Part shown: positions 8,031-27,604 of the stretch, one piece after another
How positions within the stretch are numbered: position 1 is the stretch's first letter
How the letters are laid out: every line of letters begins with the position of its first letter
Assembly (NCBI RefSeq): GCF_056746865.1
Contig: NZ_CM163382.1
DNA length: 64,000 nucleotides
Reading direction: 5' to 3' (one strand)
Notes under the pieces: generated by a model
Told to the model about the DNA's origin: nothing
Seen by the model: only the letters and a program-made list of their open reading frames with translations
Database searches by the model: none
Position numbers and translations under genes: made by a program

Positions 8031-9062
8031 TTACTCGACACCTACAATTTTACAAGCATATTTTTTAGCATTGAACGCCAACTCGCTACGTTTATGATCT
8101 GCACTAACAAGTAATGAAAGAGCTTTTATCCATATATGTGGGTCATTCTCCAGCAAGATTCCATTTACATTTTGTTCAATGAAGTCACTATATGGTACAC
8201 AATTACTATATAAACCTACAGCCCCCATTCTGACAAAATCATAAAATTTTACGGGGCCGCGAGCCGAATTAAAGTCAGAGTCAAGTAATGGTGCTAACCC
8301 GATATCCAGATGATGAGTCTTGGTATACGCAAGATAATTTTGCCAACTCATCGGATGCAGTACTGAAACTCTTGGTAGGTCACGATAATATTTATAAATA
8401 TCATGCTCGCCAAAAATTTCAAAGCTGGCACGGGGACATTCTCCCAATACCCCCTCTACGATTTGTCTCAACCAATATTTTTCTTCCCGATGAGAACTTG
8501 AGCCATGATAAGCGATTTTTACTGATCGATGTGTTTCAATGAGTGCCAGTGACGGTTTAGCAGAAACAATCTCCGGGTTAAGATGTGCATATTTATTAGC
8601 CAAATAGGCAGTTGAAACCCAAATGTTATCACAATATTGCGTAATCCATCGATGCTGAGCCGCCGACCTCCTTATTATCTTGGTACGATACTCTTTTGGT
8701 AACGTAGATAGTGCAGTCGGGTCAAACAGGTCGTCATCCATAAAATAAACAATTCGAGAAAACCTGTCGTTATATCTTTCTATGTGCTGTTGCCATTTTG
8801 GGGAGATGAATCTAATGACGACAAGGGCAGATCCTCTAGGAATAAATATATCAGTGGATGCTAATGTGTCGATAAAATGACATTCTGCATCAGGAAACCG
8901 ACTTATAATAGCCGATTCAAAATAGGCTAATGTAGGTGATTTTCCCTCATGTAATATAAACAATCGTTCAAAGTTAATCTCAGAGCTTTGCTGACTTCTA
9001 TAACTCTGTTTATTTAATTTACGATAAGGCTTAAATAGTTTCCTGCGAATTAATTCATCCAT
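8031..9062 (-). CDS. hypothetical capsule region-2 protein, possible glycosyltransferase
   Basis: 343-aa ORF inside the serotype region, overlapping the upstream gene by 13 nt. No motif I can name with confidence. Confidence 0.4.
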   Translation of the reverse strand: MDELIRRKLFKPYRKLNKQSYRSQQSSEINFERLFILHEGKSPTLAYFESAIISRFPDAECHFIDTLASTDIFIPRGSALVVIRFISPKWQQHIERYNDRFSRIVYFMDDDLFDPTALSTLPKEYRTKIIRRSAAQHRWITQYCDNIWVSTAYLANKYAHLNPEIVSAKPSLALIETHRSVKIAYHGSSSHREEKYWLRQIVEGVLGECPRASFEIFGEHDIYKYYRDLPRVSVLHPMSWQNYLAYTKTHHLDIGLAPLLDSDFNSARGPVKFYDFVRMGAVGLYSNCVPYSDFIEQNVNGILLENDPHIWIKALSLLVSADHKRSELAFNAKKYACKIVGVE

Positions 9063-11071
9063 GGCAATACTATATTAGGAGCTCTACTTAAAGAGAAATC
9101 AGGACGTTCATAACTCAAATTTTGGTTGTAGGCTGGATCGTGTTTAAGTGCACATGCCCATCGTTTTTTCATATAGCGCAACTCAGATTTCGCTCGTATC
9201 TGCTGTTGTTTTGATACATCTTTACCACGGGAAATAGACTCATGATGATACAATTCAGCGAAGGGAGTCCAGATTACTCTCCAGCCAGCATCTCGAACTC
9301 TGAGACAATAATCTACGTCATTAAAAGCTATCGGCAAATTCGTTTCATCAAGTCCTCCGAGCGCCAGATATAACTCTTTATGAGTCAATAAACAAGCTGC
9401 AGTCACAGCTGACAGCTCTTGGGCACTAACAGCCCTACGCTGATATCCAGGATCGTTAGCTGACAAACCATTATGAAAATGATCTGCACAACCGCCAGGG
9501 CCGACAGCATCGCCTGCATGCTGAATCAAGCCATTTCCGTAATACAGCTTTGCTCCTACCACACCCACGCCGGGGCGTAATAAATGAGAAACCATTTCAT
9601 CCAGCCAGTCAATACTGATTACCTGAGTATCATTATTCAGCAAACATATCATATCTCCATGTGCGTTTCTCACTGCCAGATTGTTGATGGCTGAATAGTT
9701 AAACGGTTGATCATAAGAAATCACCCTAACGCCATAAACCTGTTCGATATGAGCAAGATAAGCAAGCGTCTCCTCCTCATCGCTCTGATTATCCATCACT
9801 ATGACTTCCATATTGGCATATTGCGTCTTTTGTATCAGGCTTTCGATACAAGGGCGTAAATGAGCAATACCATTTCTAGTAGGGATAATCACTGAAACCA
9901 ATGGCAATTGCGCTGGCAACGGCCAGCGCCAACGACATACACCATGAGGTGCTGCCTCAATGCTCACTCCTGATGGCAGTAAATCTTCTTTATCTTTCAG
10001 CGACTCAAAATCATCCGAAATCAACGCTCTTGCAGGCAAATGCATCATCAATGATGGAATATGGACTATCTGTTTCGGTTCACACATCTTTGCCAACTGT
10101 AGCCACCACTGATGACATGCCGCCGAATCAAAGGGAACACGGCCAGCACCATGTTCACGCCACAAACCACACCAACTAATATAGTTTTGGCTCTGTAGCA
10201 GCGTTTCATTCCAATCAGGTTTAAAGTTGGGAGAGTGACGTTCGCCTCTCTCGTCAAGCAGATCGTGATCACCGTATATCCATAAACAATCAGGATTCTG
10301 GCGTAACTGGTGGGCAACCCAAAATAAGGCGCCGGGCGAAACCACTGCCCCTACAGGCAACACCCACTGCCATTCGCCGCCTGACTGACTGGAGATTTCT
10401 GGATATGCACTATGCTCCTGCAGACTTATATTGCTTGCCGGATAACAGAGTGCCTGAATACTCTCCAGGGTCTTGTTGCGGCTCTGTTCATCCCCAACGC
10501 CAACAAGATGCAAACAGAAACGTGGTAATGTGCCCCAGCGAGCCAGCTGGCGCTTAATCAGCTTGTATTCGGCGGGTTCAAGGGTGTCGAAGTCTGCTAG
10601 CCACTCATCATAGCTATTGAGTGGCTTATCATCGCGAACTCTGCTGACAAGTTGGTAAGCCTGCTGCAAGTCCGTGAGCCACAAATGCCATGAAAGGCCT
10701 AACCTTTTGCGTCTGGACTTCGTTAAGCGTCGGTAAAAAGGCAAAACCCGGCGCAATCGACGCCAGAGACTCTCGGCGCGTGATACACAACAAAGCTGAG
10801 CAATCTCAACATTACACTCAGCGCCCTTAGTACTTGCCAGCAAAGACAAATGACTAGCTCCCGTGGGTAGATAAACCAGCTCCAGCAACGTGCCTCGACG
10901 AGTGACCGGCAACATCTGTTCATGCCATATTCCTTGTCCGCATTGCCAGCGCAGAAGAGTTTCACCTCGAGTTTGAGTCGTCGACACGCGCCCCCGAATC
11001 AGAAGCCAACCAGCATGAAGAGAAAACGAGTCTGGCAATGTCAGAGGCTGCCAATCGCGATAGCTACACAT
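9050..11071 (-). CDS. two-domain GT2-family glycosyltransferase; N-terminal GT domain looks degenerate
   Basis: 673 aa. C-terminal half has VSVIIPTRNG...VMDNQSDEEE...NYSAINN...LLNNDTQV GT2 motifs. Paralogous along its length to the 805-aa protein at 16457..18874 (for example YGDHDLLDERGERHSPNFKPDWN vs YSDEDKINARGERFDPHFKSDWN). Confidence 0.65.
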   Translation of the reverse strand: MCSYRDWQPLTLPDSFSLHAGWLLIRGRVSTTQTRGETLLRWQCGQGIWHEQMLPVTRRGTLLELVYLPTGASHLSLLASTKGAECNVEIAQLCCVSRAESLWRRLRRVLPFYRRLTKSRRKRLGLSWHLWLTDLQQAYQLVSRVRDDKPLNSYDEWLADFDTLEPAEYKLIKRQLARWGTLPRFCLHLVGVGDEQSRNKTLESIQALCYPASNISLQEHSAYPEISSQSGGEWQWVLPVGAVVSPGALFWVAHQLRQNPDCLWIYGDHDLLDERGERHSPNFKPDWNETLLQSQNYISWCGLWREHGAGRVPFDSAACHQWWLQLAKMCEPKQIVHIPSLMMHLPARALISDDFESLKDKEDLLPSGVSIEAAPHGVCRWRWPLPAQLPLVSVIIPTRNGIAHLRPCIESLIQKTQYANMEVIVMDNQSDEEETLAYLAHIEQVYGVRVISYDQPFNYSAINNLAVRNAHGDMICLLNNDTQVISIDWLDEMVSHLLRPGVGVVGAKLYYGNGLIQHAGDAVGPGGCADHFHNGLSANDPGYQRRAVSAQELSAVTAACLLTHKELYLALGGLDETNLPIAFNDVDYCLRVRDAGWRVIWTPFAELYHHESISRGKDVSKQQQIRAKSELRYMKKRWACALKHDPAYNQNLSYERPDFSLSRAPNIVLPWMN

Positions 11072-11174
11072 AATATAACTTACAGTCCAAAGTAACAGAT
11101 GGGGGATACAGATCCTTATTAGCAGGCCTGTAGATAAGAGCAGAAATAAACACCAAAGCGCTTGCTCAATATAT

Positions 11175-12143
11175 TCAAACCATCCATTTCTTCATTTTTT
11201 TTTTGAACCAAGAACCAGTAGGAATAGGTTCAACTGCTGATAACTCAGTCAACTTCACACTTAATCGTTCCATTTCAGCTTTTACTTGTCCTGAGAATGC
11301 GGCAGCGAGAAGGCACTCTTCATCATTACGATCATGTGCCTTGAAATAATCTTTATGCTTCACTCGATTAGCAGTAGCAGCACTACCACGCAGATGCTTG
11401 CCCAACAAGAATTCCTCAAGTGATTTAACTGCATAGTGATTTACCCTGACACCGCTCCAAATCACTTCAGCACTAACTCCTTTACCATGCCTCGGGTGCA
11501 GAATCAAATCACGACCTAACACATCAATATATCGACCATAACGCAAATCAGCATAATGCGGATTATGAAAGCGGTTAACTCGTTCTGGTTTGACCACACT
11601 TTTGAAGTTATGATGAACGTTAAAGGGTTGCGGGGCACGATAGGTAAAACGTTCAATAACCAACCCCTCTTCAGCAAACAGTTCACCACTAGAACCAAAA
11701 TTTGCCCAATTCAATGCAATAGCGCTGACACTCTCATCCTGAAACTTTTCAGAAAAAAAATCTGACAATTTGGTATCCGATTCAAGTGGCAATAAAAATT
11801 CATCAGCATCTATAAATGCAAGCAGGTCTATGTCTCTGGGACAGCTACGTAAAATATGTTCATATGCAGGTAATTGTGGCTTTTGATTCACCAAAATCGG
11901 TTGATCGAACATCTTCACAATACCTAAGCGAGCGAGGGACAATAGCAACTCTCGACTACCATCACGACTACCATTATCTGCAATAATAAACCCATCAACA
12001 CCTAATACTCGATGGTAAGCAATCCATTCAAGTAAACTTGAATACTCATCCTTGATAATAGCGGCTATATAGAGTTTCAAATTATCATCCAGCAAAAATG
12101 TATCAATGCCGATACTATCGGCATTGATACTCAATTTTATCAT
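11175..12143 (-). CDS. glycosyltransferase (GT2/GT92-like fold)
   Basis: 322 aa with LLEWIAYHRVLGVDGFIIADNGSRDGS. Paralog of the N-terminal domain of the 409-aa protein at 15216..16445. Confidence 0.55.
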   Translation of the reverse strand: MIKLSINADSIGIDTFLLDDNLKLYIAAIIKDEYSSLLEWIAYHRVLGVDGFIIADNGSRDGSRELLLSLARLGIVKMFDQPILVNQKPQLPAYEHILRSCPRDIDLLAFIDADEFLLPLESDTKLSDFFSEKFQDESVSAIALNWANFGSSGELFAEEGLVIERFTYRAPQPFNVHHNFKSVVKPERVNRFHNPHYADLRYGRYIDVLGRDLILHPRHGKGVSAEVIWSGVRVNHYAVKSLEEFLLGKHLRGSAATANRVKHKDYFKAHDRNDEECLLAAAFSGQVKAEMERLSVKLTELSAVEPIPTGSWFKKKMKKWMV

Positions 12144-13928: not shown

Positions 13929-15209
13929 TTATGAGGGTGCAGATTCAGTATTATATAATTTACTCATTTTTTCATGATAAAATAAAAGCGAAGGGCAAGA
14001 ATTATACTCAAAATTATTAATCTTTTTCTTGTATATTTTTCTAACAATTTCAGAAGTAAAACAGAAATTGTTTTTAGGTGGCTTCACAATAAATCTAGAA
14101 GCGACCTGAATAATTATTTTTGATGGCTTTTCATGAGCCACCACATCAAGATCCACACTCGCACCAGAAAATACATGGATTACTCTTTTATATTTATTTA
14201 CAAAATATGGAAGCATATTTATAGAATAAGAATCACCAAAAAAAACCACGACACTATCATCTATTTTGCGATTATTTTCAAATACTCTCACCCATCCTCT
14301 ATTATTAACCCCGTTATCATAAACAATATAATTATCAATACCAGAGAAATCAGCCTTCAATATATCCTGCGAAATCGGAGGGGTTGTCTTAATTCCTAAA
14401 TCGCCATAACTCCTTTTAATGTAAAAAGGGAAAATAGAATTATCGAGGACCGTGTTGTTTTTATTTAAGATATTATCTATATATTTAGCCACCTGCAATG
14501 CAGCAAAATCAGACCAGTGCGTATCAACTTTAGAATATGAGCTATCACCGATATCTCTTAATATATCTAAAGGATAAACTATATCAGTACAAATGGAGAG
14601 TAACTGTTCAACTGGTGTCTCTGGCGATTTTTTAAACGGATAGTATGATGACAATACATTCTCTTTGGCTGGAGCCAAACAAAAAACATATTCAATCCGT
14701 TGATCATTCATATATTTCCGAATAAAATCTAGATAGTTCTTCCAAACAGAAATATCATCATTTGTAATTTTTTTAATTCCAATAAACTGCTCTTTACTCT
14801 GATTGGTATCATGATCCAAGAATAAATACCCATTGTGTCCAAAAAGCACTTTTTGAGGAGGAGTTATATCTACTCTCGCTATTACATAATCAACATTATT
14901 AATAGTTGTTCCAATACTAAACGACTCCAAACTAGTAATAGCATAACTAAAACCACACATAGTATCACTAACATTTCCATTGAAATGTCTTACTACGTCT
15001 AATCTGGGTGTATTATAGTCAAGAATTAATTTCTCTCCATTCTTAACTATATATATATTATTCTGACAACCTTTATAGAGTAGCCATCCCGATAAATGAA
15101 TCGCAGAGCAATTTGACTTAAAATAACTACATGTCCGAGGACTATCAATTGAAAACTTGAGCCCGGTAATATCTGGTCTTATAACAGATAGTTTGATATC
15201 ATATTTCAT
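13929..15209 (-). CDS. putative SGNH/AlgJ-like polysaccharide-modifying acyltransferase with N-terminal shared module
   Basis: 426 aa. N-terminus carries the HLSGW...RLDV...CGF module. The body has DTHW and FFGDSYS motifs reminiscent of SGNH/AlgJ-type O-acyltransferases. Assignment by motif only. Confidence 0.45.
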   Translation of the reverse strand: MKYDIKLSVIRPDITGLKFSIDSPRTCSYFKSNCSAIHLSGWLLYKGCQNNIYIVKNGEKLILDYNTPRLDVVRHFNGNVSDTMCGFSYAITSLESFSIGTTINNVDYVIARVDITPPQKVLFGHNGYLFLDHDTNQSKEQFIGIKKITNDDISVWKNYLDFIRKYMNDQRIEYVFCLAPAKENVLSSYYPFKKSPETPVEQLLSICTDIVYPLDILRDIGDSSYSKVDTHWSDFAALQVAKYIDNILNKNNTVLDNSIFPFYIKRSYGDLGIKTTPPISQDILKADFSGIDNYIVYDNGVNNRGWVRVFENNRKIDDSVVVFFGDSYSINMLPYFVNKYKRVIHVFSGASVDLDVVAHEKPSKIIIQVASRFIVKPPKNNFCFTSEIVRKIYKKKINNFEYNSCPSLLFYHEKMSKLYNTESAPS

Positions 15210-15215
15210 TAAATT

Positions 15216-16445
15216 TTAAACCAATTTTGAAACTAATTCTTCATTGAGTGGAAATTCTAAACTAACTAATCCAGCCTGATTTAAAGTATATATCTGAACG
15301 CTTGAGATAAGTTGTGTAGGAAGCGACAACGAACATATAAACCCGCACCCAATTCCATTACCAATCCCAGCTTTTTCTACATCAGGCCGATCATAAAATG
15401 ATAGTGAGTCTGGGCGTATTAAAAAAGAGTTATTTATAACCATTACAATACTACTACATGGTTTTTTATCATTATCTACTGCCCAACCTTTTAGAACTAT
15501 AGCACGTCCATCTTTTTTAATTGTATCAATAAATCCAACCCCCATACTTTTAGTAGTCTTATAAAGTGGTTCACTTCTGCTTTCTATGAGCGGCTGATAT
15601 CCACAATCAAGCAATTTCTCATTAATGGTTGCGATTTGACATTTTACTTTTCTCAGAAACCATAATGGAATATGTTGCTCAATATTATTCAAATCATGAT
15701 TTTTAAAAAATTGCAGATTTCTACCGAGACTATTTTTTAGTGTTGTAGCTCTACCTCGAGCGACCTTTTTATTCAAGAATTCAGCCTTTGACTTAATTAC
15801 ATAATGATTAAGTCTGATAACTGACCAGTCAATCACCTCACTTATTCCATCATAACTATGATGTTCTTCTCCACTTGGCATAACAAATTTCTTATCTGAA
15901 TTAATAATAAAAGCATGGGGTGTTGGTCCTGCTTTGATAACATCAGAAACACGAACTATTGACTTATAATGCCTATTAACAGGATGCAGATCAGCAGCTC
16001 TCTTAACGAATCGTTCTATAACAAGACCGTCATCAGGTAAAATTGAATGAGATGAGCCATATACAGCCCAGTTGAGTGATATTGCACCAATCGCCTGATC
16101 ATTTAATAGCGGCATCAGTTTGTTTAAACCATCTTCATAGTCATTTGGTGAAATAAATTCATCTGCATCAATAAATGCAACCCATCTATCTTTATCAAGC
16201 ATTGACAATATTTTATTGTACGCCCCCAATTGTGGGGGAATACCATCTTGTGTCGGATAGTCAATCCTTTTGATAATATTCGCTTTATCTAGAAAATATA
16301 AAAGCTCACTACTTCCATCACTACTAATATTGTCGGCAATATATATATCATTAATGCCAAGAGCCATATGGTAAGCAATCCACTCAACAATGAATGGGTA
16401 TTCATTTTTTAAAATTGCACCTATTGAAAGCATCGCTGTTATCAC
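15216..16445 (-). CDS. glycosyltransferase (GT2/GT92-like) fused to C-terminal shared module
   Basis: 409 aa with VEWIAYHMALGINDIYIADNISSDGS at the N-terminus and IVLKGW...RPDV...CGF at the C-terminus. Confidence 0.55.
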   Translation of the reverse strand: MITAMLSIGAILKNEYPFIVEWIAYHMALGINDIYIADNISSDGSSELLYFLDKANIIKRIDYPTQDGIPPQLGAYNKILSMLDKDRWVAFIDADEFISPNDYEDGLNKLMPLLNDQAIGAISLNWAVYGSSHSILPDDGLVIERFVKRAADLHPVNRHYKSIVRVSDVIKAGPTPHAFIINSDKKFVMPSGEEHHSYDGISEVIDWSVIRLNHYVIKSKAEFLNKKVARGRATTLKNSLGRNLQFFKNHDLNNIEQHIPLWFLRKVKCQIATINEKLLDCGYQPLIESRSEPLYKTTKSMGVGFIDTIKKDGRAIVLKGWAVDNDKKPCSSIVMVINNSFLIRPDSLSFYDRPDVEKAGIGNGIGCGFICSLSLPTQLISSVQIYTLNQAGLVSLEFPLNEELVSKLV

Positions 16446-16456
16446 TCTACTTAAAA

Positions 16457-18874
16457 TTAAATGGAGAAGTCTTCTCTATCTTTAGATAGGTTTGGACTGT
16501 AGAAGGGATCGAGTTCGAGATGTTTACCCCATTTGCTTTTCATAAAGTTCACTTCCCTGGCAAATCTGGCTATTTTCTCCGGGGAATCTTCGGCACCTCG
16601 ACTAATTGATTCATAGTGGTAAAGCTCGGCATAAGGCGTCCAGAGATTACGGTACCCCGCTTCGCGTACTTTCAGACAGAAGTCCACATCATTAAAAGCA
16701 ACATGCAAATTCTCTTCATCCAACCCGGCAACTTCCTCATAAATATTTTTGCGAATAAGCAGGCAAGCAGCCGTGACGGCCGAGAGAGTTTGTGTCAACA
16801 ACAAACGGCTGAAATAACCCGGATGATGGCGAGGGTACTGTTTATGAGAGTGTCCCGCTACACCACCAATACCGAGAATAACTCCGCCATGTTGTAAAGT
16901 ATCATTACTGTAATAGAGCTTGGCCCCGACACAACCAATCTCTGGTCGCATGCAGTGACTCACCATCTCGGTCAGCCAATCCGGGTTGATTACCTCGACA
17001 TCATTATTGACCAAGCCGATAATGGCCCCCTTGGCGTGACGAACGCCAAAGTTGTTGATGGCCGAGTAGTTAAAGGGGTGGTCATAGCGCAATACTCTGA
17101 CCCGGCTGTCTTCCTGCTGGATCTGGGCAAAGAAATCGAGAGTCTCCTGCTCCACGCTGCCATTATCGAGAATCAGGATCTCGAAATGGGTATAGGTACT
17201 GCGATCGATGATGCTACGCACCGCAGTTTCGGTTAGAGCACGACGATCCCGAGTAGGAATAAGCAAACTAACCAGTGGGGCTGGTTCTGAAATAGGGTAA
17301 CGTACCCGATAGGTGTTGGGAACCAACCCCGCCTCAACCGTAACCTCAGGTTGCTGCTTAGAAAAATAGTCGCGTAGCGCTTTGATGCCAGCCTCCGTGG
17401 TGTAGCTCTTCTCGCCAGAAGCCAAAGCTGTAGAGCCCTCAATGGTACGCCAGTGGTAAAGCACACGGGGAATGTGAACTATCTGCTCTGCAGCTACATG
17501 AGGCAGACAACGCAGCAGCAGATCCTGATCCTGACTTCCTTCTACTCCCAAACGGAATCCCCCAATCTGTTGCAGCAGAGAGCGACGATAGACCCCGAGA
17601 TGCGAGACATAGTTTTGCGAAAAGAATAAATCTGGATTCCAATCGCTCTTGAAATGAGGATCAAAACGCTCACCGCGGGCATTAATTTTATCTTCGTCAC
17701 TGTAAAGGATCTGGGTATGAGGCTGCTCACAAATAGCCTGAGCCATAAATAGCATAGCATGCTCTGGCAACACATCATCATGATCCAACAGAGCTACGAA
17801 ATCCCCTTTTGCAATTTCGAGAGCACTGTTGGAAGCAGCCGAAATATGACCATTGTGCTTTCGGTAGACAACTTTGATTCGGCTATCCTTGGCCTCGTAT
17901 TCGCGCAGTACGCGTTGCACATGTTCTTTTGGCGAACGATCATCGGCAATACAGAGTTCCCAATGGGGATAGCTTTGAGCCAGGACAGAATCCAGACAGG
18001 CACGCAAGTAGATCTCCGCTGGATTATAAACAGGAATCACAATAGATATAACTGGAGGGTGAGTCATACTGGCAAGCATCAGACTCACCTCTTTGTTGCC
18101 AGGCAACGAAGGTAATTCCACCGTTTCTATCCATTCCTCATAACCGACAGAAAACGGGGTAACGCTGAACGTTTCGTTATAGAATGCCTGCAGGCGCTCT
18201 ATTGACATATCGCCATTGTCCATCAATATGGATTTTTTGATTTTTTCTAGCGGCATGTCACGATAGCTTTGGTGTTCTTTTTGAATGCGAGCCAATAGTG
18301 CAGACTCAACTACTTTCACATCAACAGCTGCTATTTCAAACTGATTAATTGCAAATGTTGCTGCCTGTTCTAATGGATCAAATCGTAATGCAACAAGAGG
18401 CGATTCCAGATAGAACAAACGACTGACGCTGACCGCTCGTTTATATGGCAACGTTACTGTTTCAAACTCATTGAACCCTTTACCTGTATCCAAATATAAC
18501 TTAGCTAATCCTTGCTTTGGTTGGCAATTAATAGAGATATTAAATTGATACCATCCCTTGCTAATATTTGAGAGCTGCTCCAAATCAATAATGAAAAATG
18601 GATCATTTCCCTCTGCAACCCAACTTTGTGAATTATCTATATCTATCGAGAGCTGATTTGTTGCCAGATAGGGCAGCACAACTGTATTTTGCATTTTACT
18701 CACTGCAGGAGAAACGTCCCATGCTTCGCATGGTTTCCTACCGAGTAACATCCCATAACGCTTAAAATGTTCTCTTGCTGACAACCCGGTCTGTTTCACA
18801 TCCAAATAGTTATGCAGATACCAATGTTCATCAAAGTGAGCTAGCAACTCGTCTTGGTGATTTTTAACCATCAC
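16457..18874 (-). CDS. dual-domain GT2 glycosyltransferase, candidate capsule polymerase
   Basis: 805 aa with two GT2 cores (ISIVIPVYNP...LLDHDDVL and VSLLIPTRDR...ILDNGSVEQE...NYSAINN...LVNNDVEV). N-terminal HWYLHNYLDVKQTGLSAREHFKRYG motif. Strong RBS (AGGGAG) before the start. Confidence 0.7.
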   Translation of the reverse strand: MMVKNHQDELLAHFDEHWYLHNYLDVKQTGLSAREHFKRYGMLLGRKPCEAWDVSPAVSKMQNTVVLPYLATNQLSIDIDNSQSWVAEGNDPFFIIDLEQLSNISKGWYQFNISINCQPKQGLAKLYLDTGKGFNEFETVTLPYKRAVSVSRLFYLESPLVALRFDPLEQAATFAINQFEIAAVDVKVVESALLARIQKEHQSYRDMPLEKIKKSILMDNGDMSIERLQAFYNETFSVTPFSVGYEEWIETVELPSLPGNKEVSLMLASMTHPPVISIVIPVYNPAEIYLRACLDSVLAQSYPHWELCIADDRSPKEHVQRVLREYEAKDSRIKVVYRKHNGHISAASNSALEIAKGDFVALLDHDDVLPEHAMLFMAQAICEQPHTQILYSDEDKINARGERFDPHFKSDWNPDLFFSQNYVSHLGVYRRSLLQQIGGFRLGVEGSQDQDLLLRCLPHVAAEQIVHIPRVLYHWRTIEGSTALASGEKSYTTEAGIKALRDYFSKQQPEVTVEAGLVPNTYRVRYPISEPAPLVSLLIPTRDRRALTETAVRSIIDRSTYTHFEILILDNGSVEQETLDFFAQIQQEDSRVRVLRYDHPFNYSAINNFGVRHAKGAIIGLVNNDVEVINPDWLTEMVSHCMRPEIGCVGAKLYYSNDTLQHGGVILGIGGVAGHSHKQYPRHHPGYFSRLLLTQTLSAVTAACLLIRKNIYEEVAGLDEENLHVAFNDVDFCLKVREAGYRNLWTPYAELYHYESISRGAEDSPEKIARFAREVNFMKSKWGKHLELDPFYSPNLSKDREDFSI

Positions 18875-18876: not shown

Positions 18877-21606
18877 TTATTCTCCCTTATTGACAGGCAG
18901 GCAACTGCGCTGCTCAAACTTCCCATACATAATGTAATGAAGCAGCGGATTAATGCCTCCTTGGGCCACATCCGGATAGGCTTGCAAATACCAGCGAGTA
19001 TCAAACTGCTCACTAGGGCTATAACCTTTATCCGCCCCCACGCTAATAAAATGCTCAAGAGCTGAGAGCCCAGTGTCTGCAACCTCTGGGTAGCGATGTT
19101 GATACCAGAGTTCATCAAACAATCCTGAAGCGGCAATACGCTCCGCGGCACTCTCTGTAGCTGTTGTTCTGGATGGAGTCTCCTTAAATGTTCTGCCAAG
19201 AGCACGAACTGGGGCTGTAATCTTCCAAGAGACGGTTCTCTTCAAATTCTGAGCGCGTTCTTTTGCTCTATTCAATTGCCGCTCTTTTTGTTTTAACTCA
19301 CAGCTAAGCTGCTCCATATGCCGCGTCATGACTGCCAACTCCTGGAAACGCTCTGCAATATTAGCTTCCAACCTTCCGTTGAGTGTGGTTAGTTCTCTTA
19401 CCTGGTCTTGCAGTACAGACTGCTGGCTCTGCAGCAAGGTTTGTTCCCGGATTAAGGCCTCCTTCTCTTCTTTCCAGGCTTGCTGCTGAGCTCTATATGT
19501 TTCATTGGTCTGTTGTTGTTCACTTGCTGCGCTAAGGAGTGCCTGATCACGTTCTTCCAGCCAACGGGTTAAGGTTGCAATCTCGCTGTACCGCTCATTG
19601 AGCACCGATTCCAACTCATCAAGTTGATGTTGCTTTTCTTTTGCTGCTGAGAGCAATGCAGACTGGGCCTGCTGAAGCGACTCTTGCTCAGCCCTTAACT
19701 GCTGCTCTACGCCAGACAACTTGGTGGTAATCAATTGTTTTTCAATCTCTAGTTCAGTGATAATCTGCTTGTGCTCTTCTAATAGACGTGTTAGAGCTAC
19801 CGTTTCACTAAAACGCTCGGCTAATGCCAAGTCCCGTTCGCTAATCTGTTGCTGATGTGTGGTCTGTTCAACTGCCAGTTGTTGTTGTAATGCTGATAGC
19901 GCCTCTGTGAGTTGCTTATACTCTGCTTGTTGAGCAGCCATTACGTCGCTTTGTGACGCAATATTAGACTCGCGCACTGCTATTAGTTGAGTCAGTTCAT
20001 CACATTGTTTAGAAGCCGCAGCCAAAGCAAGAGTTTGCTCATCTATGCTTTGCTGCAATGTTTGTTGCACAAGTTGCCCTTCTTCCAACTGTTGCTGTAG
20101 ATTTGCACTTACCTTTTTCAGTGCATCATATTCCAAGCCTAACGTATCGTGCTGTGCTTCCAGTAATCCATAAGCATGCTGCAACTGGTTTTTAGTTTGC
20201 TGCTCACCGTCAAGCTGCTGCTGCAATGCATTAGCCTGCTGTTGCAACAAGTTCACCATATTGTCTCGCTCGGCCAGTGTACGAACCTGTGTATCCTGGA
20301 CATGTAGCGCTTGTTCCAACTGAAGCTGTAATTCGGTAATTTGCCGCGAATGTTCGCTCAATGCTCTGTTACTCTTGCTGAGCGCGAGAGTAAGGTGAGA
20401 TGCACGCTGTGTTTCTTCACTCAATTGTAACGTCAGGGTATTGACCTGTTGCTCCAGTTGATGGCGAGCTTGCTCCTGGCTCGTGATGCGACTCTGTTGC
20501 TGCTCTAGTTGATGCAGAGCTGTATGCAACTCATCGTTGGCTTGTATTCGCTCCTGCGACCATACACTCAAGTTTGTTTGGGCCTCATTGAGCTGTTCTT
20601 GCAATAATGCCACCTCAGATGTCAGCGAATTGATATGTTGCTGGGCAAAAGATAGCTCATCAGATTGCACTTGAGCATGTGCAAGCTGCTTTTCCATTTC
20701 TAATATGCTGTTATGTTGTGCAGTAATGCGCTCGGCAAGACGCCCTCTTTCCAATGCCTGCTGTTCTACCAATAGCTGCCGTTCAGCCTGAATGTCATCT
20801 TGTTGTGTAGACAACTGACGTTTTAACAGGGAATTCTCCCAACTCTCGCTACAAGATTTCCCCAAACGACAAAAGATGTCTTGGACTTGTTTGGTTACAC
20901 GAGCATTTTCTGAGATTTTATACAAATTATTAAGTTCTGGAGATTGTTCACACCCCACACCAACTATCCCTAGTCCATGCCCATGAGCGAACTCAAAGTG
21001 TGGATATTGTCGTTTTAATTCATCCAAAAGCTGAAATACGCCAAAACCACGTTCCCTAACATTGGTATCATGCATAATGACCACAGCCCTTTCAGAAAGC
21101 TTTGGCAACCAGCTTTCAAAATCATGGCGTACCGCTTCGAACGTATGCAAACCATCAATATGAAGCAGATCAATGCTACCTTGTGAAAAATGCTCTAACG
21201 CTTGGTCAAATGTACTGCGAATGAGAGTAGAAAAACCTGAATAGTGCTGTTGATTATATTCTGATACTTGCCTGTAAACTTCTTCGCCATACAGCCCCGC
21301 ATGTTCATCTCCCCCCCAGGTATCAACGGCAAAGCAGCATGTTTCTAAATCTAGTTTAGAGACTGCCTGGCAGAATGAGAAATAAGAACTTCCATAATGA
21401 GTTCCCAGCTCAACAATATTTCTTGGCCGCAGTGTGTCAACTAACCAGAAAGCAAAAGGAATATGTTCTAGCCAAGCAGATTGTGCAAGATATGTAGGAC
21501 GCCAAAAAAGAGATGATTTGAAAATGAAATTCAATTCCCCGCCAATATCAGTGATGGGATATAACTCACGATTTTCTACTAACTGACTAATTTTTTGACT
21601 ATCCAT
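18877..21606 (-). CDS. class I SAM-dependent methyltransferase-like domain fused to a ~550-aa coiled coil and C-terminal WY repeats
   Basis: 909 aa. N-terminus has NIVELGTHYGSS...LLHIDGLHTFEAV...VIMHDT (Methyltransf_24-like). Residues ~255-810 are Q/E/L-rich heptad-like sequence with three ER[FY]xE[IL]A..TR..EE repeats. C-terminus has two W-Y-x3-Y-P-[ED]-V-A...G...H[FY] repeats. Confidence 0.65.
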   Translation of the reverse strand: MDSQKISQLVENRELYPITDIGGELNFIFKSSLFWRPTYLAQSAWLEHIPFAFWLVDTLRPRNIVELGTHYGSSYFSFCQAVSKLDLETCCFAVDTWGGDEHAGLYGEEVYRQVSEYNQQHYSGFSTLIRSTFDQALEHFSQGSIDLLHIDGLHTFEAVRHDFESWLPKLSERAVVIMHDTNVRERGFGVFQLLDELKRQYPHFEFAHGHGLGIVGVGCEQSPELNNLYKISENARVTKQVQDIFCRLGKSCSESWENSLLKRQLSTQQDDIQAERQLLVEQQALERGRLAERITAQHNSILEMEKQLAHAQVQSDELSFAQQHINSLTSEVALLQEQLNEAQTNLSVWSQERIQANDELHTALHQLEQQQSRITSQEQARHQLEQQVNTLTLQLSEETQRASHLTLALSKSNRALSEHSRQITELQLQLEQALHVQDTQVRTLAERDNMVNLLQQQANALQQQLDGEQQTKNQLQHAYGLLEAQHDTLGLEYDALKKVSANLQQQLEEGQLVQQTLQQSIDEQTLALAAASKQCDELTQLIAVRESNIASQSDVMAAQQAEYKQLTEALSALQQQLAVEQTTHQQQISERDLALAERFSETVALTRLLEEHKQIITELEIEKQLITTKLSGVEQQLRAEQESLQQAQSALLSAAKEKQHQLDELESVLNERYSEIATLTRWLEERDQALLSAASEQQQTNETYRAQQQAWKEEKEALIREQTLLQSQQSVLQDQVRELTTLNGRLEANIAERFQELAVMTRHMEQLSCELKQKERQLNRAKERAQNLKRTVSWKITAPVRALGRTFKETPSRTTATESAAERIAASGLFDELWYQHRYPEVADTGLSALEHFISVGADKGYSPSEQFDTRWYLQAYPDVAQGGINPLLHYIMYGKFEQRSCLPVNKGE

Positions 21607-21746: not shown

Positions 21747-23006
21747 TCAATCCTGGTGCTCACGCAAAGTTGCCAGCCCCATAATAATAAGACCATAGAA
21801 CAAGCAAAGTAATACACCCACAGTCGCAAGATTATAGAATCGCCGTGGATATTCGGCATCTTCCGCTAAAGTTGGTTGGGTAATAACCAATAGGTGCTTA
21901 AGTTTACGATATGCCTCAACCCGCGTCTGCTCTAAGCTGATAAGGCCAGTTTTGTAGAGATCCGCTGCCAAGGTTGCCTGCGTTTGCACATCCATGTAAC
22001 CGGCGGTGATTTCATTCATGGCATCGTTATCTTGACCAGTCAGCTTAGCACGCTCCTGTTCAAGCTGCTTGGTTAGGGCGTCAACTCGGCTCTGTAATGA
22101 GACTACGGCCGGTGCGGTTTCCTTCATATAGCTGCGCAGTTGTTTTAGCTCCGCCTGTTGACGCACCAGCTCTCCTTCAATCTGGCTGACCACTCCTAAG
22201 CGTGCGCTGCTGGTAGATTCAGGGCTGAGAAGTTGGTGGCTATTCTGAAATGCTAATACTTTAGCTTTTTCATCCTGTAAGCGTTGATATGCTCTATTTA
22301 CTTCTTTTTCAACAAAGGCCAATTGTTCGAGCGCAACCTGATGACCTAATTTGTTAATAAAACGCTCCGATTCTTTGAGCATTAACTCAACAACTCGCTG
22401 ACCGTATTGGGGATCAAATGTCTGCAACTCAACGGTAAGTACTCCTGATAATTCATCAAGATGTAACGTCAAATGTTTGCGGTAATAATCAAGAAAATCC
22501 TCCCTACTGACTCCCTTATGCAACCGCGAGAAATAATCTGCACTATCACTCTGGAAATGTGCTTTAAGTGCAAGTTCTTTGTCCAACTTGGCCAGCATAT
22601 CCCATGACTTCATATAATCCTGAACGAGTAATATATCCTGATGATTACTACCACCGATCCCTAACATTGATAACGCATCAGGCAACATTTTAACTTGATC
22701 GGCTTGTTTAATCATTAATTCAGCCCGGCTCACATAACGATCGGAAGCAATGAAGCCAAAATAGAGCACTGCGATAGAAAAGCAGATAACTACCCAAAGA
22801 AAACTGCCTAGCTGTAAACTTTTCTTCCACGAGCGGTGTACAATTTGATATCCTCTCGAATCAATCAAAAATAGTTTTGGATTATTGCTCAGTTTTCTTA
22901 ACTTTCGCGCAAGGCGAGATATTGAGGATGAAGAATTCGGAGATGTCATAATCAGTTGCTGCTCAAAGTGACTGGTAAATTTTGATGGCATCATCAATAT
23001 TATCAA
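21747..23006 (-). CDS. kpsE: KpsE-like capsule export inner-membrane protein (Wzz/PCP-3 type)
   Basis: 419-aa track ORF with one N-terminal transmembrane segment, a long periplasmic coiled region and a C-terminal TM (GVLLCLFYGLIIMGLATL). Track start overlaps kpsT by 44 nt; a start at the internal Met (22949) is more likely. Confidence 0.7.
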   Translation of the reverse strand: MIILMMPSKFTSHFEQQLIMTSPNSSSSISRLARKLRKLSNNPKLFLIDSRGYQIVHRSWKKSLQLGSFLWVVICFSIAVLYFGFIASDRYVSRAELMIKQADQVKMLPDALSMLGIGGSNHQDILLVQDYMKSWDMLAKLDKELALKAHFQSDSADYFSRLHKGVSREDFLDYYRKHLTLHLDELSGVLTVELQTFDPQYGQRVVELMLKESERFINKLGHQVALEQLAFVEKEVNRAYQRLQDEKAKVLAFQNSHQLLSPESTSSARLGVVSQIEGELVRQQAELKQLRSYMKETAPAVVSLQSRVDALTKQLEQERAKLTGQDNDAMNEITAGYMDVQTQATLAADLYKTGLISLEQTRVEAYRKLKHLLVITQPTLAEDAEYPRRFYNLATVGVLLCLFYGLIIMGLATLREHQD

Positions 23007-23613
23007 AAACTTCTAATTTACCATCACGTAACAAGATGCCCATATCGCATTGTTGTCGTAGATTTTTCATATCATGTGAAACCATAATCAAACTAGCTGT
23101 TTCTCGCTTTTTGTTAAATACATCAATACATTTTTGTTTAAAACGTGCATCACCTACTGAGGTAATTTCATCGGTAAGATATATATCAAAATCAAAAGCC
23201 ATACTAACAGCAAAAGAAAATTTTGATTTCATGCCGCTAGAGTATGTTTTAATAGGCAACTCATAATGTTGTCCAATTTCAGAAAACTCTTTAACCCACT
23301 CTTCTACGGTGCTTGTATCGCGTACACCATGAATGCGGCAAACAAATCGCGTGTTTTCACGACCAGTCATACTACCTTGAAATCCCCCACCTAGTGCTAG
23401 AGGCCAAGATACTCGGCAGAGACGAGTTACTTTCCCCCTGTTAGGCGTATCCATCCCTCCTAACAAACGTAACAAAGTAGATTTTCCTGCTCCATTGATA
23501 CCTAGAATACCTATATTACGGTCCCTTGGTAGCTCAATATTTACATTCCTCAGGACATAATTTCGTCCAAATTTAGTCGGATAATATTTTGATACATTAT
23601 CAAGAATAATCAT
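22963..23613 (-). CDS. kpsT: capsule ABC transporter ATP-binding protein
   Basis: 216 aa, Walker A GINGAGKSTLL, ABC signature region. Adjacent to the ABC-2 permease. Confidence 0.85.
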   Translation of the reverse strand: MIILDNVSKYYPTKFGRNYVLRNVNIELPRDRNIGILGINGAGKSTLLRLLGGMDTPNRGKVTRLCRVSWPLALGGGFQGSMTGRENTRFVCRIHGVRDTSTVEEWVKEFSEIGQHYELPIKTYSSGMKSKFSFAVSMAFDFDIYLTDEITSVGDARFKQKCIDVFNKKRETASLIMVSHDMKNLRQQCDMGILLRDGKLEVFDNIDDAIKIYQSL

Positions 23614-23624
23614 TTTTCTTAACG

Positions 23625-24425
23625 CTAACTAGCAATCAATTGGCGATGCCGTAATCGGTAACAACTCATAGCAAAAGTGAGCAATAATAAGGTGACAACC
23701 GACAGATACGCCCAACTTACATCAGGACTACGATAACCAGATATCCATGCCCTTCGGATTAGTTCTACAGCATGCACAAGTGGATTCCATAAAAACCAAT
23801 GCTGATATTGAGGGGGAATAGTAGCAAGAGGAAACATAACACAAGAGATAAACATCAAAGGCATCATTAACAAGCTAAGAAATTTATCTGCCTCTTTCGC
23901 TAAGTTACAAATAACACAAAATACAATACCAAGAGAAAAAGAAAACAGCATCAGAAGAGAATAACCAAGGATCACTTGCAATGGATCCGCAGGTATTGCA
24001 TCAAAGCCAAACCACAATAATCCTAGTACTAGGATGATACCGACAATCATGCCCACCATTGTTTCTAGCATAAAACGTGCTATAAAAGTTGCAAAAGGAG
24101 TCACTTGTCTATAACAAAAAAGTCCCATATTAGCATTGACAGCAGATTTCAACTGAGTCACAACTTTATTGAAAAACATGAAAGGTAAATAACCAGCAGT
24201 AATAAAAACCTGGGCTGGGACACCACCAAAGCCACTTTGGCTTCTCATCCCAAATACTACACTGAACAGGCTAATCATTAATAATGGGTCAAGTAATGCC
24301 CAAGCATAACCTAGTCGGTAATTACCAAATCTTGTTTTTAGCTCACGAATTAATAAGCCAAATACTACATCACGTAATACTTGCAAAGAAGTGCGTGGAG
24401 TTTGACTAATAATGGGTTTGTCCAT
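23625..24425 (-). CDS. kpsM: capsule ABC transporter permease (ABC-2 family)
   Basis: 266 aa, six predicted TM helices, ABC-2 type. Immediately upstream of kpsT. Confidence 0.8.
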   Translation of the reverse strand: MDKPIISQTPRTSLQVLRDVVFGLLIRELKTRFGNYRLGYAWALLDPLLMISLFSVVFGMRSQSGFGGVPAQVFITAGYLPFMFFNKVVTQLKSAVNANMGLFCYRQVTPFATFIARFMLETMVGMIVGIILVLGLLWFGFDAIPADPLQVILGYSLLMLFSFSLGIVFCVICNLAKEADKFLSLLMMPLMFISCVMFPLATIPPQYQHWFLWNPLVHAVELIRRAWISGYRSPDVSWAYLSVVTLLLLTFAMSCYRLRHRQLIAS

Positions 24426-24491
24426 TAATACTTACCCAAATAATCGGCTCATTATAGCAACGAGCCTCCGATTAAAATTTAAAACACTCAA

Positions 24492-26237
24492 TCATTTAAT
24501 AGCAACGTTAGCAGCTACAGCGATTTGATAAATAATTTGTGTGATATCTTTAAATGATTGCATGGTTTTGCTATCAACCTGAGGTAGAACCAATATCTGA
24601 TCCCCCGGTTGTACTTTACCTTGCCCTTTAAATTCTACAAGACCATTTGCATGTACAATAGCAATTCGCTTGTCGTTAGCTCGCTCAGTAAAACCTCCGG
24701 CCCATGCAACATAATCATCCAAATTAGCATCGGCATTATATACTACTGCTTGTGGCATCAACACTTCACCACCCACTTGAATAAGATCAGTCTTATTTGG
24801 AATAACTATTTGATCGCCTTGTTCTAATTGGATATTGGCAATAACACCTTTATCTGCAACTACTACTTTACCAAGCGGTTGAACTTTACGAGCCTTTTCA
24901 ACAAACTGCATCACTAACTCTGCTTCTTTAGCACGTATATTCGCCTCACCATCAGATCGCGCGGGTGTGGTAAATACACTACGTTCCAAGCGGTTTAGAG
25001 ATTCATCCAGCATCTCTTTTTGTCTTGCAGCCACACTCTTTCGTATCAGATAAATTGATTGATAATCCGCAAGCTCTGGGTCAATAGGGATATAGTTCAA
25101 TAAATCATGCAATTTAGTTTGCTTACGAACCGTGAAATATGACGGTCCCATATAACTGCCTGATACTTGTATATCATATACTTGTGCATGCATGTCATCA
25201 TTAAAAAGTACTTTGTCACCGTCTTTAAGTTGAAGACGTGTAAAATCTTTATACGGCAAGTAGACGGAAAACGGGCCGCTTTCCCTGTCGCCAATCACAC
25301 CGACATGACTGACTTTTGCGAGAGGAAGTGCATAATTCACCAATTCAGAGCCTAATGCATTGCGCTGGGTAAGCTCAAATCGGAATGGGTTTCGAACCTT
25401 TCCCGCAACATTGATCATTGGACCTTGTTGCTCAACTAAAATCACATCTTGATCTTTTAATGCCAGCTTCGGGAGTTTCCCATACCGTATGAAATCATAA
25501 AGATCAATTTGCTGTATTACTCTATTTTGTCGTAACACCTTAATTTTTCGATAACTTCCACGGTCAGAATCTATTCCACCGGCACGTTTTAAAAAATACA
25601 ATATACTATCAGAAGATTGTCCTGCATACTGCCCAGGACGAATTACAGGCCCCGTAACGAATACACTTACAGGGGTTGCAGTCAAAAGATTTACGTAAGT
25701 ATTTACATTATTGGTAAATACATCACCGATCTTACTTGCCACCAACTGATTAACTTGGCTTGCAGGAACATTTTTTACATTTATTGGACCTACATCAGGT
25801 ATGAAAATATTTCCTTGATTATCTACCGTAACCACATTAGAGAAATTGACCGCTCCCCAAATCCAGATATTTAACTTATCCCCAGGAGCAATCAAATAAT
25901 TATCGCTTAAGCCGTCACTCCTTTCTGTTTCATAGCCTCCGGCAAATAAATTAGCACCATACGGAGGAGGTAAGCCTGCTTCAGATTGCGGCAGTAATTT
26001 TCGTACATCTGACTCTCCTGGAAGCAACATCCCATTACGATTCTGTTGTGTGAAGCTTCCTGTTGTGGAGGTTGTATTAGGCTGTCCAGTGATGTCTGCT
26101 AGCATTTTCCGAGACTCTCCTGTCGAGGCAGCAAGATCATAATCTAAATGTGAACCATTAGATTGATTTTGCTCTATTGCGGCGAATGCTGATGCAGAAA
26201 TAAGAAAGAGAAGAGTGCTAAGTTGCGAAATTTTCAT
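24492..26237 (-). CDS. kpsD: KpsD-like periplasmic/outer-membrane capsule export protein
   Basis: 581 aa with signal peptide (MKISQLSTLLFLISASAFA). Central region resembles KpsD (GDKLNIWIWGA...GNIFIPDVGPINV...VFVTGPVIRPGQY...RGSY). Confidence 0.75.
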   Translation of the reverse strand: MKISQLSTLLFLISASAFAAIEQNQSNGSHLDYDLAASTGESRKMLADITGQPNTTSTTGSFTQQNRNGMLLPGESDVRKLLPQSEAGLPPPYGANLFAGGYETERSDGLSDNYLIAPGDKLNIWIWGAVNFSNVVTVDNQGNIFIPDVGPINVKNVPASQVNQLVASKIGDVFTNNVNTYVNLLTATPVSVFVTGPVIRPGQYAGQSSDSILYFLKRAGGIDSDRGSYRKIKVLRQNRVIQQIDLYDFIRYGKLPKLALKDQDVILVEQQGPMINVAGKVRNPFRFELTQRNALGSELVNYALPLAKVSHVGVIGDRESGPFSVYLPYKDFTRLQLKDGDKVLFNDDMHAQVYDIQVSGSYMGPSYFTVRKQTKLHDLLNYIPIDPELADYQSIYLIRKSVAARQKEMLDESLNRLERSVFTTPARSDGEANIRAKEAELVMQFVEKARKVQPLGKVVVADKGVIANIQLEQGDQIVIPNKTDLIQVGGEVLMPQAVVYNADANLDDYVAWAGGFTERANDKRIAIVHANGLVEFKGQGKVQPGDQILVLPQVDSKTMQSFKDITQIIYQIAVAANVAIK

Positions 26238-26263: not shown

Positions 26264-26635
26264 TTATTCTTCAATAAGCAAAGTGCTAACTGATGTTTGT
26301 TCCAACTGAGGTACTTGATACCACTTGTTATTCTCTTTACATACAACACTTCGCTTTGAATAATTTTTATTCATCGCATAACTTAACTTTATGCATTGAG
26401 AACCTAAAGCCGATATATACCTTTCCTCAATAGTATAAATTACGCCATTTTTGTTGAATGTCGTGCCTTGATCTTGGTTATTTAATGGTGCCTGCAAATC
26501 TTCAGGAATAAGAGAATAAGAAGAATTAATCGCTGTTACCAATGGACGAGAGGCTTCAACTTGTTTTGGATCATGTGCGCAGGCCGTTATAAAAAAGATT
26601 AGTGAAAATAATAAAATACGATGTGCAAGGTGCAT
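26264..26635 (-). CDS. putative small lipoprotein
   Basis: 123 aa, signal peptide plus lipobox (FFITAC). Sits between the JUMPstart element and kpsD. No assignable family. Confidence 0.4.
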   Translation of the reverse strand: MHLAHRILLFSLIFFITACAHDPKQVEASRPLVTAINSSYSLIPEDLQAPLNNQDQGTTFNKNGVIYTIEERYISALGSQCIKLSYAMNKNYSKRSVVCKENNKWYQVPQLEQTSVSTLLIEE

Positions 26636-27564: not shown

Positions 27565-27604
27565 GAATGCTACCGCCCCTGGCTTTACAGCTACCAATAC
27601 ACTG
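27565..27604 (-). promoter_or_regulatory. JUMPstart element containing an ops (GGCGGTAG) site, RfaH-dependent antitermination signal for the kps transcript
   Basis: Minus-strand sequence cagtgtattggtagctgtaaagccaggggcggtagcattc closely matches the 39-bp JUMPstart consensus (CAGTG..TGGTAGCTGT.AAGCCAGGGGCGGTAGC). Correct orientation, ~1.3 kb upstream of kpsD. Confidence 0.75.

Follow-up and report, generated by a model that had tools for sequence, protein, structure and literature searches.

The 64,000-nucleotide stretch of DNA analysed here (the window) carries a gene for a 909-aa methyltransferase, coiled-coil and repeat protein, which begins with ATG and occupies 18877..21606. The preliminary description had the open reading frame and its length right, and the strand is corrected here to minus. 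The surrounding genes follow the layout of group 3A kps capsule loci, with region 1 (kpsD-M-T-E), the serotype genes and kpsC, and with the gsp/yghD operon adjoining. Region 1 lies on the minus strand at 21747..26237 and consists of kpsD (24492-26237), kpsM (23625-24425), kpsT (22963-23613) and kpsE (21747-22949), all read in the same direction, and kpsC is found at 1561-3708. The methyltransferase/coiled-coil gene is the first serotype-specific gene of the locus, in which rmlBDAC are also present. The kpsS gene, which with kpsC would make up region 3, is not among the open reading frames listed for the window and may be cut by its left edge or lie outside it. The locus is probably that of K145, and 909 aa is also the length of K145_5 in the kTYPr catalogue.

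A copy that is 99.7% identical at the DNA level is held in RefSeq (WP_023154147, strain 50579417), where it is named 'class I SAM-dependent methyltransferase'. Across 33 complete genomes the gene remains intact, with an identity of 99% or more, and its position is always between kpsE and the polymerase gene. According to the kTYPr tables, homologs occur in K3, K98, K114, K121, K142, K145, K149 and K158, all of them group 3 loci. The idea that such a gene is not standard in E. coli kps loci therefore holds for group 2, from which it is absent, but not for group 3, in which it recurs. Papers from 2023 and 2026, Hong et al. among them, already note the same gene in the group 3 kps loci of E. coli as a putative methyltransferase, assign it no function and treat the variation in its length as unimportant.

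The N-terminal O-methyltransferase domain spans aa 21-255 (20842..21546, minus strand; Pfam core aa 64-180). Methyltransf_24 matches aa 64-180 with an E value of 5e-25 and is the only domain found in a Pfam scan of the full-length protein. An AlphaFold2 model, built with a 149-sequence alignment, confidently shows a class I O-methyltransferase fold in which VELGTHYG is intact, as expected for the SAM-methyltransferase that had been proposed from the motifs ELGTHYGSS, IDGLHTFEAV and MHDT, all of which are found in the translation. The glycine-rich VELGTHYG and the acidic residues show little or no variation among 149 homologs. D150 does not vary at all, and D179 and N181 are conserved in 90% or more; the HIDGLH and HDTN motifs that contain these three residues resemble the CCoAOMT triad in sequence, and they are candidates for a metal-binding Asp/Asp/Asn triad. 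The structures nearest to the modelled head are the sugar O-methyltransferases MeT1, SpnH and CalS11, and InterProScan (kTYPr tables) assigns the protein to the PANTHER entry 'rhamnosyl O-methyltransferase'. With 3,626 clusters at E <= 1e-30, this methyltransferase family is very large. When the PDB was searched by sequence, neither the full-length protein nor its C-terminal domain nor a profile of the family matched a methyltransferase, WbdD or a repeat-domain structure, and a family without a sequence-detectable solved structure merits description by itself.

The head is followed by a coiled-coil spacer of ~540 aa (aa 256-790; 19237..20841, minus strand). The very long Q/E/L-rich coiled coil seen earlier is borne out: aa 224-798 are free of proline, and Q accounts for 17.8%, L for 15.6%, E for 12% and A for 10%. 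When the heptad register was checked, hydrophobic occupancy of the a and d positions was 10.2 z units above shuffles. AlphaFold2 places helices at 234-343, 358-507 and 553-777, with breaks at aa 344-357 and 508-552. The spacer ranges from 376 to 828 aa among homologs, with both ends conserved (75-97% identity in the N-domain and 50-98% in the C-domain). Natural alleles include proteins of 816, 857, 909 and 1197 aa. Spacer indels (n = 143) are enriched in lengths of 0 and 4 mod 7, with 43 multiples of 7 and 38 of 4 mod 7. The length of the spacer changes freely among homologs, mostly by steps that preserve the heptad register. If it formed an extended parallel coiled coil, the spacer could reach up to ~70-80 nm; an antiparallel coiled coil would put the head beside the polymerase and abolish any ruler.

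Three copies of an ER[FY]xE motif had been described within the coiled coil. All three are present on the minus strand, at aa 597-611 (19774..19818), aa 671-685 (ERYSEIATLTRWLEE; 19552..19596) and aa 752-766 (ERFQELAVMTRHMEQ; 19309..19353), the last being the conserved copy. An exact fit to the pattern as originally given is confined to the middle copy, since copy 1 reads ERFSETVALTRLLEE and copy 3 ends in EQ. Close homologs have one to six copies with heptad-quantised spacing, and in nearly all of them, including the protein studied here, exactly 41 aa separate the last copy from the motif SW[RK]xTxPxR. The quantised spacing and this fixed distance show that the copies did not arise by chance. 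A self-BLAST of the protein found no long internal repeats, and the ERF units repeat only at the level of the motif. DNA identity to the K114-type allele stops at copy 3.

In the protein studied here the junction motif is the basic and aromatic SWKITAPVR (aa 793-801; 19204..19230, minus strand), which is modelled with a pLDDT below 50 and is kept in fused relatives as SWRxTxPLR. The short C-terminal repeat domain noticed earlier proves to be two 38-aa repeats, modelled at a pLDDT of ~92, at aa 829-864 (19015..19122; HMM i-E 1.4e-16) and aa 868-902 (18901..19005; HMM i-E 9.4e-21), both on the minus strand. A single copy stands at the N-terminus of the neighbouring dual-GT2 protein (aa 13-48; 18731..18838, minus strand; HMM i-E 3e-12), and BLASTP aligns the repeats of the two proteins with 51% identity over 41 aa (E 4e-10). 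The repeat HMM found nothing beyond the copies in these two proteins in a six-frame translation of the window, and a full-length scan matched the repeat to no Pfam-A family; this candidate docking repeat also merits description by itself. A word-indexed homolog search with the 114-aa C-terminal domain brought up just 9 short fragments.

The dual-GT2 protein (805 aa; 16457..18874, minus strand) has GT2 modules at ~aa 270-460 and 527-765 according to NCBIfam. Its suggested role as a polymerase is plausible, the best PDB match being the K4 chondroitin polymerase (2z86, E 1.2e-24). The reported 2-nt spacing between the genes is that to a GTG start, and it becomes 5 nt to the adjacent ATG. The GGGAG ribosome-binding site of the polymerase gene lies inside the last codons of the methyltransferase gene, and on this layout the polymerase gene is considered translationally coupled to it. 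The pairing of a repeat tail with a repeat at the N-terminal end of the next enzyme occurs in three K-types of E. coli whose downstream enzymes are unrelated: the dual GT2 of K96 is only 23% identical, and the enzyme in the K114-type locus is GH99-like/WbsX-type. The pairing is also found in 8 of 8 complete distant loci, and is conserved with or without the methyltransferase domain. This recurrence suggests that the C-terminal repeats may be a docking site for the repeat near the start of the polymerase.

Relatives extend this picture. Fused proteins of 1000-1866 aa combine the same methyltransferase, a short coiled coil and SWRxTxPLR (some with repeats) with glycosyltransferase domains of the GT2x2, GT1/4, RgpF, WsaF or WbsX kinds. 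In thousands of relatives the methyltransferase is placed strictly at the distal end. An ABC nucleotide-binding protein is encoded within 3.5 kb of 34 of 80 relatives, and 25 of those 34 ABC proteins are at least 380 aa long; 18 of the 20 tested carry Wzt_C, which is the cap-recognising domain of Wzt transporters. At the other extreme, K96 and K54, which published surveys place among the commonest types of group 3, have a 337-aa version that lacks the methyltransferase domain, and the K96 homolog has nothing but the coiled coil, the junction and the two repeats. In the literature on the gene we found no description of the repeat pairing, the methyltransferase-less version in K96, the fused relatives or the Wzt_C association, and the family may already figure among the predicted terminators of Wzt_C-linked systems.

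We suspect that the protein is a cytoplasmic terminator, ruler and adaptor for the group 3 (KpsMT/KpsCS-dependent) capsule, and give this reading a probability of roughly 0.5. In this scenario, the C-terminal repeats would dock on the N-terminal repeat of the dual-GT2 polymerase and keep it at the foot of an oligomeric coiled coil, close to the membrane and to the lipid-linked acceptor. The methyltransferase head would be up to 70-80 nm distant, and a growing chain could get to it only once it had become about that long. [quoted passage not shown] In its favour, Whitfield and colleagues regard a coiled coil as a characteristic marker of terminators. Against it stands the stated view of the field, by which capsules exported by ABC transporters lack a chain-terminating residue.

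A terminator and ruler role of this kind had been put forward in the preliminary description, and it is plausible. The head, the coiled coil and the polymerase-proximal tail are arranged as in WbdD, and the context of the family agrees. Several observations weigh on the other side, namely that PDB sequence and profile searches detected no sequence homology to WbdD or WbbB, that the K96 form has no methyltransferase, and that KpsT (216 aa) comprises only the nucleotide-binding domain, with no Wzt_C. Without Wzt_C the cap-recognition step of the transporter is missing, and capping would thus control length rather than signal export. We found no report of a terminal methyl sugar in the literature on K3, K98 and other group 3 capsules, and O-methyl sugars are absent from the abbreviations listed for known structures of group 3, an absence that fits a methyl group that is terminal and sub-stoichiometric.

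The coiled coil and repeat tail could instead act first of all as a scaffold that recruits or activates the polymerase at the membrane or the export machinery, as WbdD does for WbdA, with the head as an optional decorator of the polymer that does not set its length. The K96 homolog, being without a methyltransferase, implies that coiled coil and tail have a methylation-independent role, and that termination by methylation is not essential to the pathway. In a TnSeq study the gene for this homolog scored as required for capsule production, although the requirement may be a polar effect on the downstream polymerase gene. A scaffold would also be in keeping with a repeat pairing that is indifferent to the methyltransferase domain and with a KpsT that has no cap reader. 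It leaves unexplained, however, why a 540-aa spacer is kept in heptad register while varying from 376 to 828 aa, why the methyltransferase is so strictly distal, and why the family is frequently associated with Wzt_C transporters; we regard it as unlikely, if well short of negligible.

Even less probable, in our judgement, is that the methyltransferase acts away from the non-reducing terminus, either on internal sugars of the repeat unit (partial O-methylation) or on a linker near the lipid anchor, the coiled coil merely keeping the enzyme in the assembly complex. Its structural neighbours MeT1, SpnH and CalS11 do methylate sugars in non-terminal contexts, and the conserved three-glycosyltransferase block and rml genes of group 3A loci have been proposed to build a rhamnose-containing linker. 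Yet K10 and K96 have that block and the rml genes with no methyltransferase, which indicates that the methyltransferase tracks the polymerase gene and not the linker genes, and a linker-modifying enzyme would need just the opposite of a place at the tip of a long stalk. The abbreviation list of known group 3 repeat units likewise argues against internal sugars. The idea that the gene is decaying, or that it encodes an SMC-like or cytoskeletal coiled-coil protein with no part in the capsule, is effectively refuted by context and conservation, because the weak NCBIfam matches to SMC, at 33.6 bits where the cutoff is 567, stem only from the composition of a coiled coil, the catalytic motifs are conserved, and the gene is intact across genomes and fixed in its place in the capsule locus.

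Capsule length affects serum resistance, susceptibility to phages and depolymerases, and the quality of glycoconjugate vaccines. For the question of how chain length is set in ABC-transporter capsules (E. coli groups 2 and 3, Neisseria, Haemophilus and others), the gene is a concrete and genetically tractable candidate. Natural controls exist in coiled coils that differ by hundreds of residues, in the K96 allele without a methyltransferase domain and in alleles with unrelated polymerases. More tentatively, and at somewhat less than even odds, group 3 and other KpsMT/KpsCS-type capsules (e.g., metagenomic locus L009) may measure their chains with a coiled-coil ruler of up to ~80 nm tipped with a capping O-methyltransferase, with the 38-aa repeat as a portable docking code for unrelated polymerases and the K96 form as a natural ruler without a cap. 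If true, such a ruler would be the first determinant of chain length for capsules that depend on ABC transporters, and two dual-GT2 lineages and a WbsX/GH99-like enzyme would plug into the same ruler. Such a portable code would explain recombination that swaps the tail together with the polymerase.

Among known systems, WbdD (E. coli O8/O9a, Klebsiella O3/O5), an O-antigen chain terminator with a coiled-coil ruler, likewise has an N-terminal SAM methyltransferase head and an extended coiled coil, and is encoded in an ABC-transporter-dependent glycan locus. Its non-catalytic C-terminal region recruits the separate polymerase WbdA, a role that is predicted for the tail described here. In contrast to WbdD, the methyltransferase here belongs to the Methyltransf_24/family-3 OMT-like subfamily and there is no kinase domain; the coiled coil has ~540 aa, whereas the whole C-terminal region of WbdD has ~250 aa; 38-aa repeats, mirrored on the polymerase, form the tail; KpsT has no Wzt_C cap reader; and the product is a Kdo-lipid-anchored capsule rather than an undecaprenyl-linked O-antigen. 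PA5457/PA5459 of P. aeruginosa were considered as close analogues and set aside, as they have neither the coiled coil nor the interaction domains.

The S-layer glycan protein WsaE of Geobacillus stearothermophilus is similar by description. Its N-terminal O-methyltransferase, fused to two rhamnosyltransferase modules, caps the rhamnan with 2-O-methyl-rhamnose, and it is encoded in an ABC-transporter locus with rml genes; relatives of the protein in the window carry WsaF and RgpF domains. No long coiled coil has been described for WsaE, unlike the protein studied here. [quoted passage not shown] The GT99 beta-Kdo transferase, kinase and carbohydrate-binding module of that group are absent here. 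The fused form of WbbB and ORF6 is matched exactly by relatives of the window protein, whereas in the locus described here the modules are split over two genes, with the break falling within the repeat array.

The key new observation is a 38-aa repeat common to the C-terminal tail of the 909-aa methyltransferase/coiled-coil (MT/coiled-coil) protein and the start of the 805-aa dual-GT2 protein encoded directly after it (16457-18874, minus strand). This putative docking repeat (HMM consensus LFDTKWYLQRYPDVAAAGINPLEHYLLHGAAEGRSP) was previously undescribed. Two copies lie in the tail (aa 829-864 and 868-902; AlphaFold2 pLDDT about 92) and one opens the dual-GT2 protein (aa 13-48; 51% identity over 41 aa, E 4e-10); there are none elsewhere in a six-frame translation of the window. 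The top match of the dual-GT2 protein is K4 chondroitin polymerase (E 1.2e-24), which supports its proposed role as a candidate polymerase. No family is assigned to its aa 50-260, the stretch of ~210 aa that separates the repeat from the first GT2 module.

The MT/coiled-coil gene (18877-21606) starts with ATG; the preliminary description had its coordinates, length and quoted peptide motifs right, and left unstated the strand, which is minus. After its stop codon come AA and then GTG ATG of the dual-GT2 gene, so the 2-nt gap noted earlier holds for a GTG start and becomes 5 nt for an ATG start. Given that a GGGAG ribosome-binding site lies within the final codons of the MT/coiled-coil gene, the dual-GT2 gene appears to be translationally coupled to it.

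Hong et al. 2023 include the gene under the label of SAM-dependent methyltransferase. Pfam assigns the protein a single domain, Methyltransf_24 (aa 64-180, E 5e-25), with only coiled-coil noise in the remainder, and InterProScan (kTYPr tables) places aa 43-211 in the PANTHER family 'rhamnosyl O-methyltransferase'. No solved structure for the domain was detectable by sequence search. The AlphaFold2 model, run on a 149-sequence alignment (pLDDT >90 for aa 21-260), scores 16.7 against family-3 cation-dependent O-methyltransferases, 16.6 against MeT1, 16.3 against CCoAOMT, 15.0 against SpnH (spinosyn rhamnosyl 4'-O-methyltransferase) and 14.3 against CalS11. In the glycine-rich loop VELGTHYG, E65, G67 and G71 are invariant among the 149 homologs, as are D145, H148, D150 and H178; D94, D179 and N181 are kept in at least 90%. 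Together, the Pfam match, the model and the conserved loop support the predicted N-terminal methyltransferase fold. Judged by sequence, this strongly conserved domain has a very wide distribution: of the representatives of clusters formed at 50% identity, 9,247 match it at E <= 1e-3 and 3,626 even at E <= 1e-30. It is N-terminal in nearly all of the best 150 matches, which, closest relatives aside, are 54-68% identical.

The long coiled coil proposed earlier is confirmed by the absence of proline from residues 224-798 (with only 7 glycines), by heptad a/d hydrophobic occupancy (z = 10.2 above shuffles, with the register holding across long stretches) and by AlphaFold2 helices at 234-343, 358-507 and 553-777. 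The composition is 17.8% Q, 15.6% L, 12% E and 10% A. If extended, the 485-544 helical residues would span ~70-80 nm (taking 0.148 nm for each residue). In a set of 120 close homologs, identity is 75-97% over the N-domain and 50-98% over the final 115 aa, and the middle section ranges from 376 to 828 aa. Of 143 middle-region indels, which are not phylogenetically independent events, 43 have lengths divisible by 7 (binomial p = 1e-6) and a further 38 are of the 4 mod 7 class; because indels favor these classes, coiled-coil length seems to evolve freely with the register preserved. The three ER[FY]xE motifs described previously are present at aa 597, 671 and 752. Homologs have 1-6 copies, the last of which lies exactly 41 aa before the junction motif SW[RK]xTxPxR (aa 793 here) in nearly all of them.

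The repeat pairing recurs in other loci. K96 gene 5 of strain M12 (k96-05, L007:6505-7518), annotated as hypothetical, encodes 337 aa comprising a coiled coil, an ERF-like motif, AWKAVAPVRAL and two 38-aa repeats (38% identity to aa 714-900 of the 909-aa protein, E 4e-40), and the K96 dual GT2 'wcaA' encoded downstream is just 23% identical to that of the window, yet carries the repeat from residue 1. A K114-type locus (L091:9001-13778) encodes an 857-aa homolog and, directly after it, a 721-aa GH99-like/WbsX-type protein with two repeats at its start. In distant genomes (among them Silvania, a Deltaproteobacterium, Rhizobium, Luteimonas, Agrobacterium, Hyphomicrobium, Neorhizobium and a Bacteroidales genome), the adjacent large glycosyltransferase opens with repeats in all 8 complete loci where a standalone methyltransferase/coiled-coil protein ends in them. 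The window (K145-type) and K114-type alleles share DNA identity only up to nt 2261 (aa ~754), where the last ERF motif lies (19309-19353), and this suggests that the junction and repeat tail are inherited with the polymerase, and the head and stalk with kpsDMTE. In this gene, Hong et al. 2023 saw substitutions clustered at the 3' end.

In all 20 long relatives scanned for domains (819-1866 aa), the N-terminal methyltransferase recurs and leads through a short coiled coil into glycosyltransferase modules: GT2 in 13, GT1/GT4 in about 10, RgpF in 7, WsaF in 3 and WbsX in 2. Most have the SWRxTxPLR motif, and some place 38-aa repeats between coiled coil and glycosyltransferases. The two-gene layout of the window thus looks like a single terminator/coiled-coil/polymerase protein split within the repeat array. 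At least 556 relatives, spread over many phyla, turned up when 100,044 species genomes were scanned; in 34 of their best 80 loci an ABC nucleotide-binding protein lies within 3.5 kb, 25 of these 34 being at least 380 aa. Of 20 nucleotide-binding proteins tested with Pfam, 18 carry Wzt_C, which in E. coli O8/O9a is the module responsible for reading the terminal cap. Among the best 80 loci, four resemble kps loci and have short nucleotide-binding proteins; a kps-like metagenomic locus, which contains two Capsule_synth genes, encodes a 926-aa homolog.

The window gene belongs to an E. coli group 3 capsule locus, with the gsp/yghD operon upstream. In minus-strand order, kpsD (24492-26237), kpsM, kpsT (216 aa) and kpsE precede it; after the dual-GT2 gene come two unassigned proteins, ugd, rmlBDAC and kpsC (1561-3708). 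The 909-aa length and gene content fit the kTYPr catalogue (2026) entry for K145, a group 3A type, and we infer that K-type. The region 2 proteins at 13929-16445 (409 and 426 aa) had no NCBIfam match. Strain 50579417 has a near-identical MT allele in a locus lacking the 426-aa gene, so the same putative ruler allele would serve at least two region 2 variants. Upstream of rmlBDAC, a conserved group 3A block of three glycosyltransferases (8031-12143; 322-aa GT92-like, 673-aa 'wsaE' GT2 and 343-aa proteins) is also found in K10 and K96, both without the methyltransferase; others proposed that it synthesizes a rhamnose-containing linker. The long leader of kpsD holds a 123-aa ORF (26264-26635) and, ~1.3 kb upstream of kpsD, an ops element (GGCGGTAG, 27570-27577, minus strand), an 8-mer by itself not statistically unusual (2 matches vs 1.1 expected); near-identical genomes also have a kpsM' pseudogene fragment there. 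The leader matches the RfaH-dependent ops leader described for K96 in a recent paper.

By megablast, 51 of 5426 complete E. coli genomes have the MT/coiled-coil gene (33 with copies at least 99% identical); sensitive blastn finds it in 66, with 14 matches on plasmids, and group 3A kpsE is present in 101. Cassettes of kpsDMTE, MT/coiled-coil and dual-GT2 genes, plasmid-borne or between IS elements (L002, L003, L005), occur in E. coli and the Enterobacter cloacae complex, with coiled coils of different length (816 and 869 aa). In strain 98232 (NZ_CP173446.1 2274320-2277877) IS26 interrupts the gene, a natural knockout that could be phenotyped.

The best-supported model is that the 909-aa protein is a terminator, ruler and adaptor. 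In this scenario, the tail would dock on the dual-GT2 polymerase, the stalk would keep a sugar O-methyltransferase at a distance of up to 70-80 nm, and chains reaching the head would be capped and stop growing, such that the stalk may control length. Against this, no methyl group has been reported in group 3 capsule structures, the window locus has no cap reader, and k96-05 lacks the methyltransferase domain. In the main rival model, stalk and tail would chiefly serve as a scaffold for the polymerase, and methylation would be an optional addition. An SMC identity was rejected, as NCBIfam scores are far under the cutoff (33.6 vs 567 bits).

According to Whitfield's group, a coiled coil characteristically marks the terminators of O-antigen systems, and ABC capsules lack a chain-terminating residue; the literature covered here contained no proposal of a terminator or ruler function in capsules. 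The preliminary description likened the protein to WbdD and WbbB, O-antigen coiled-coil terminators and rulers. The likeness in design stands, along with the repeat pairing and the Wzt_C of relatives, but it does not extend to sequence membership of either family, a cap reader or a reported methyl group. The terminator-ruler-adaptor model, which is partly supported, would place an O-antigen-style terminator/ruler module within a KpsMT/KpsCS capsule pathway.
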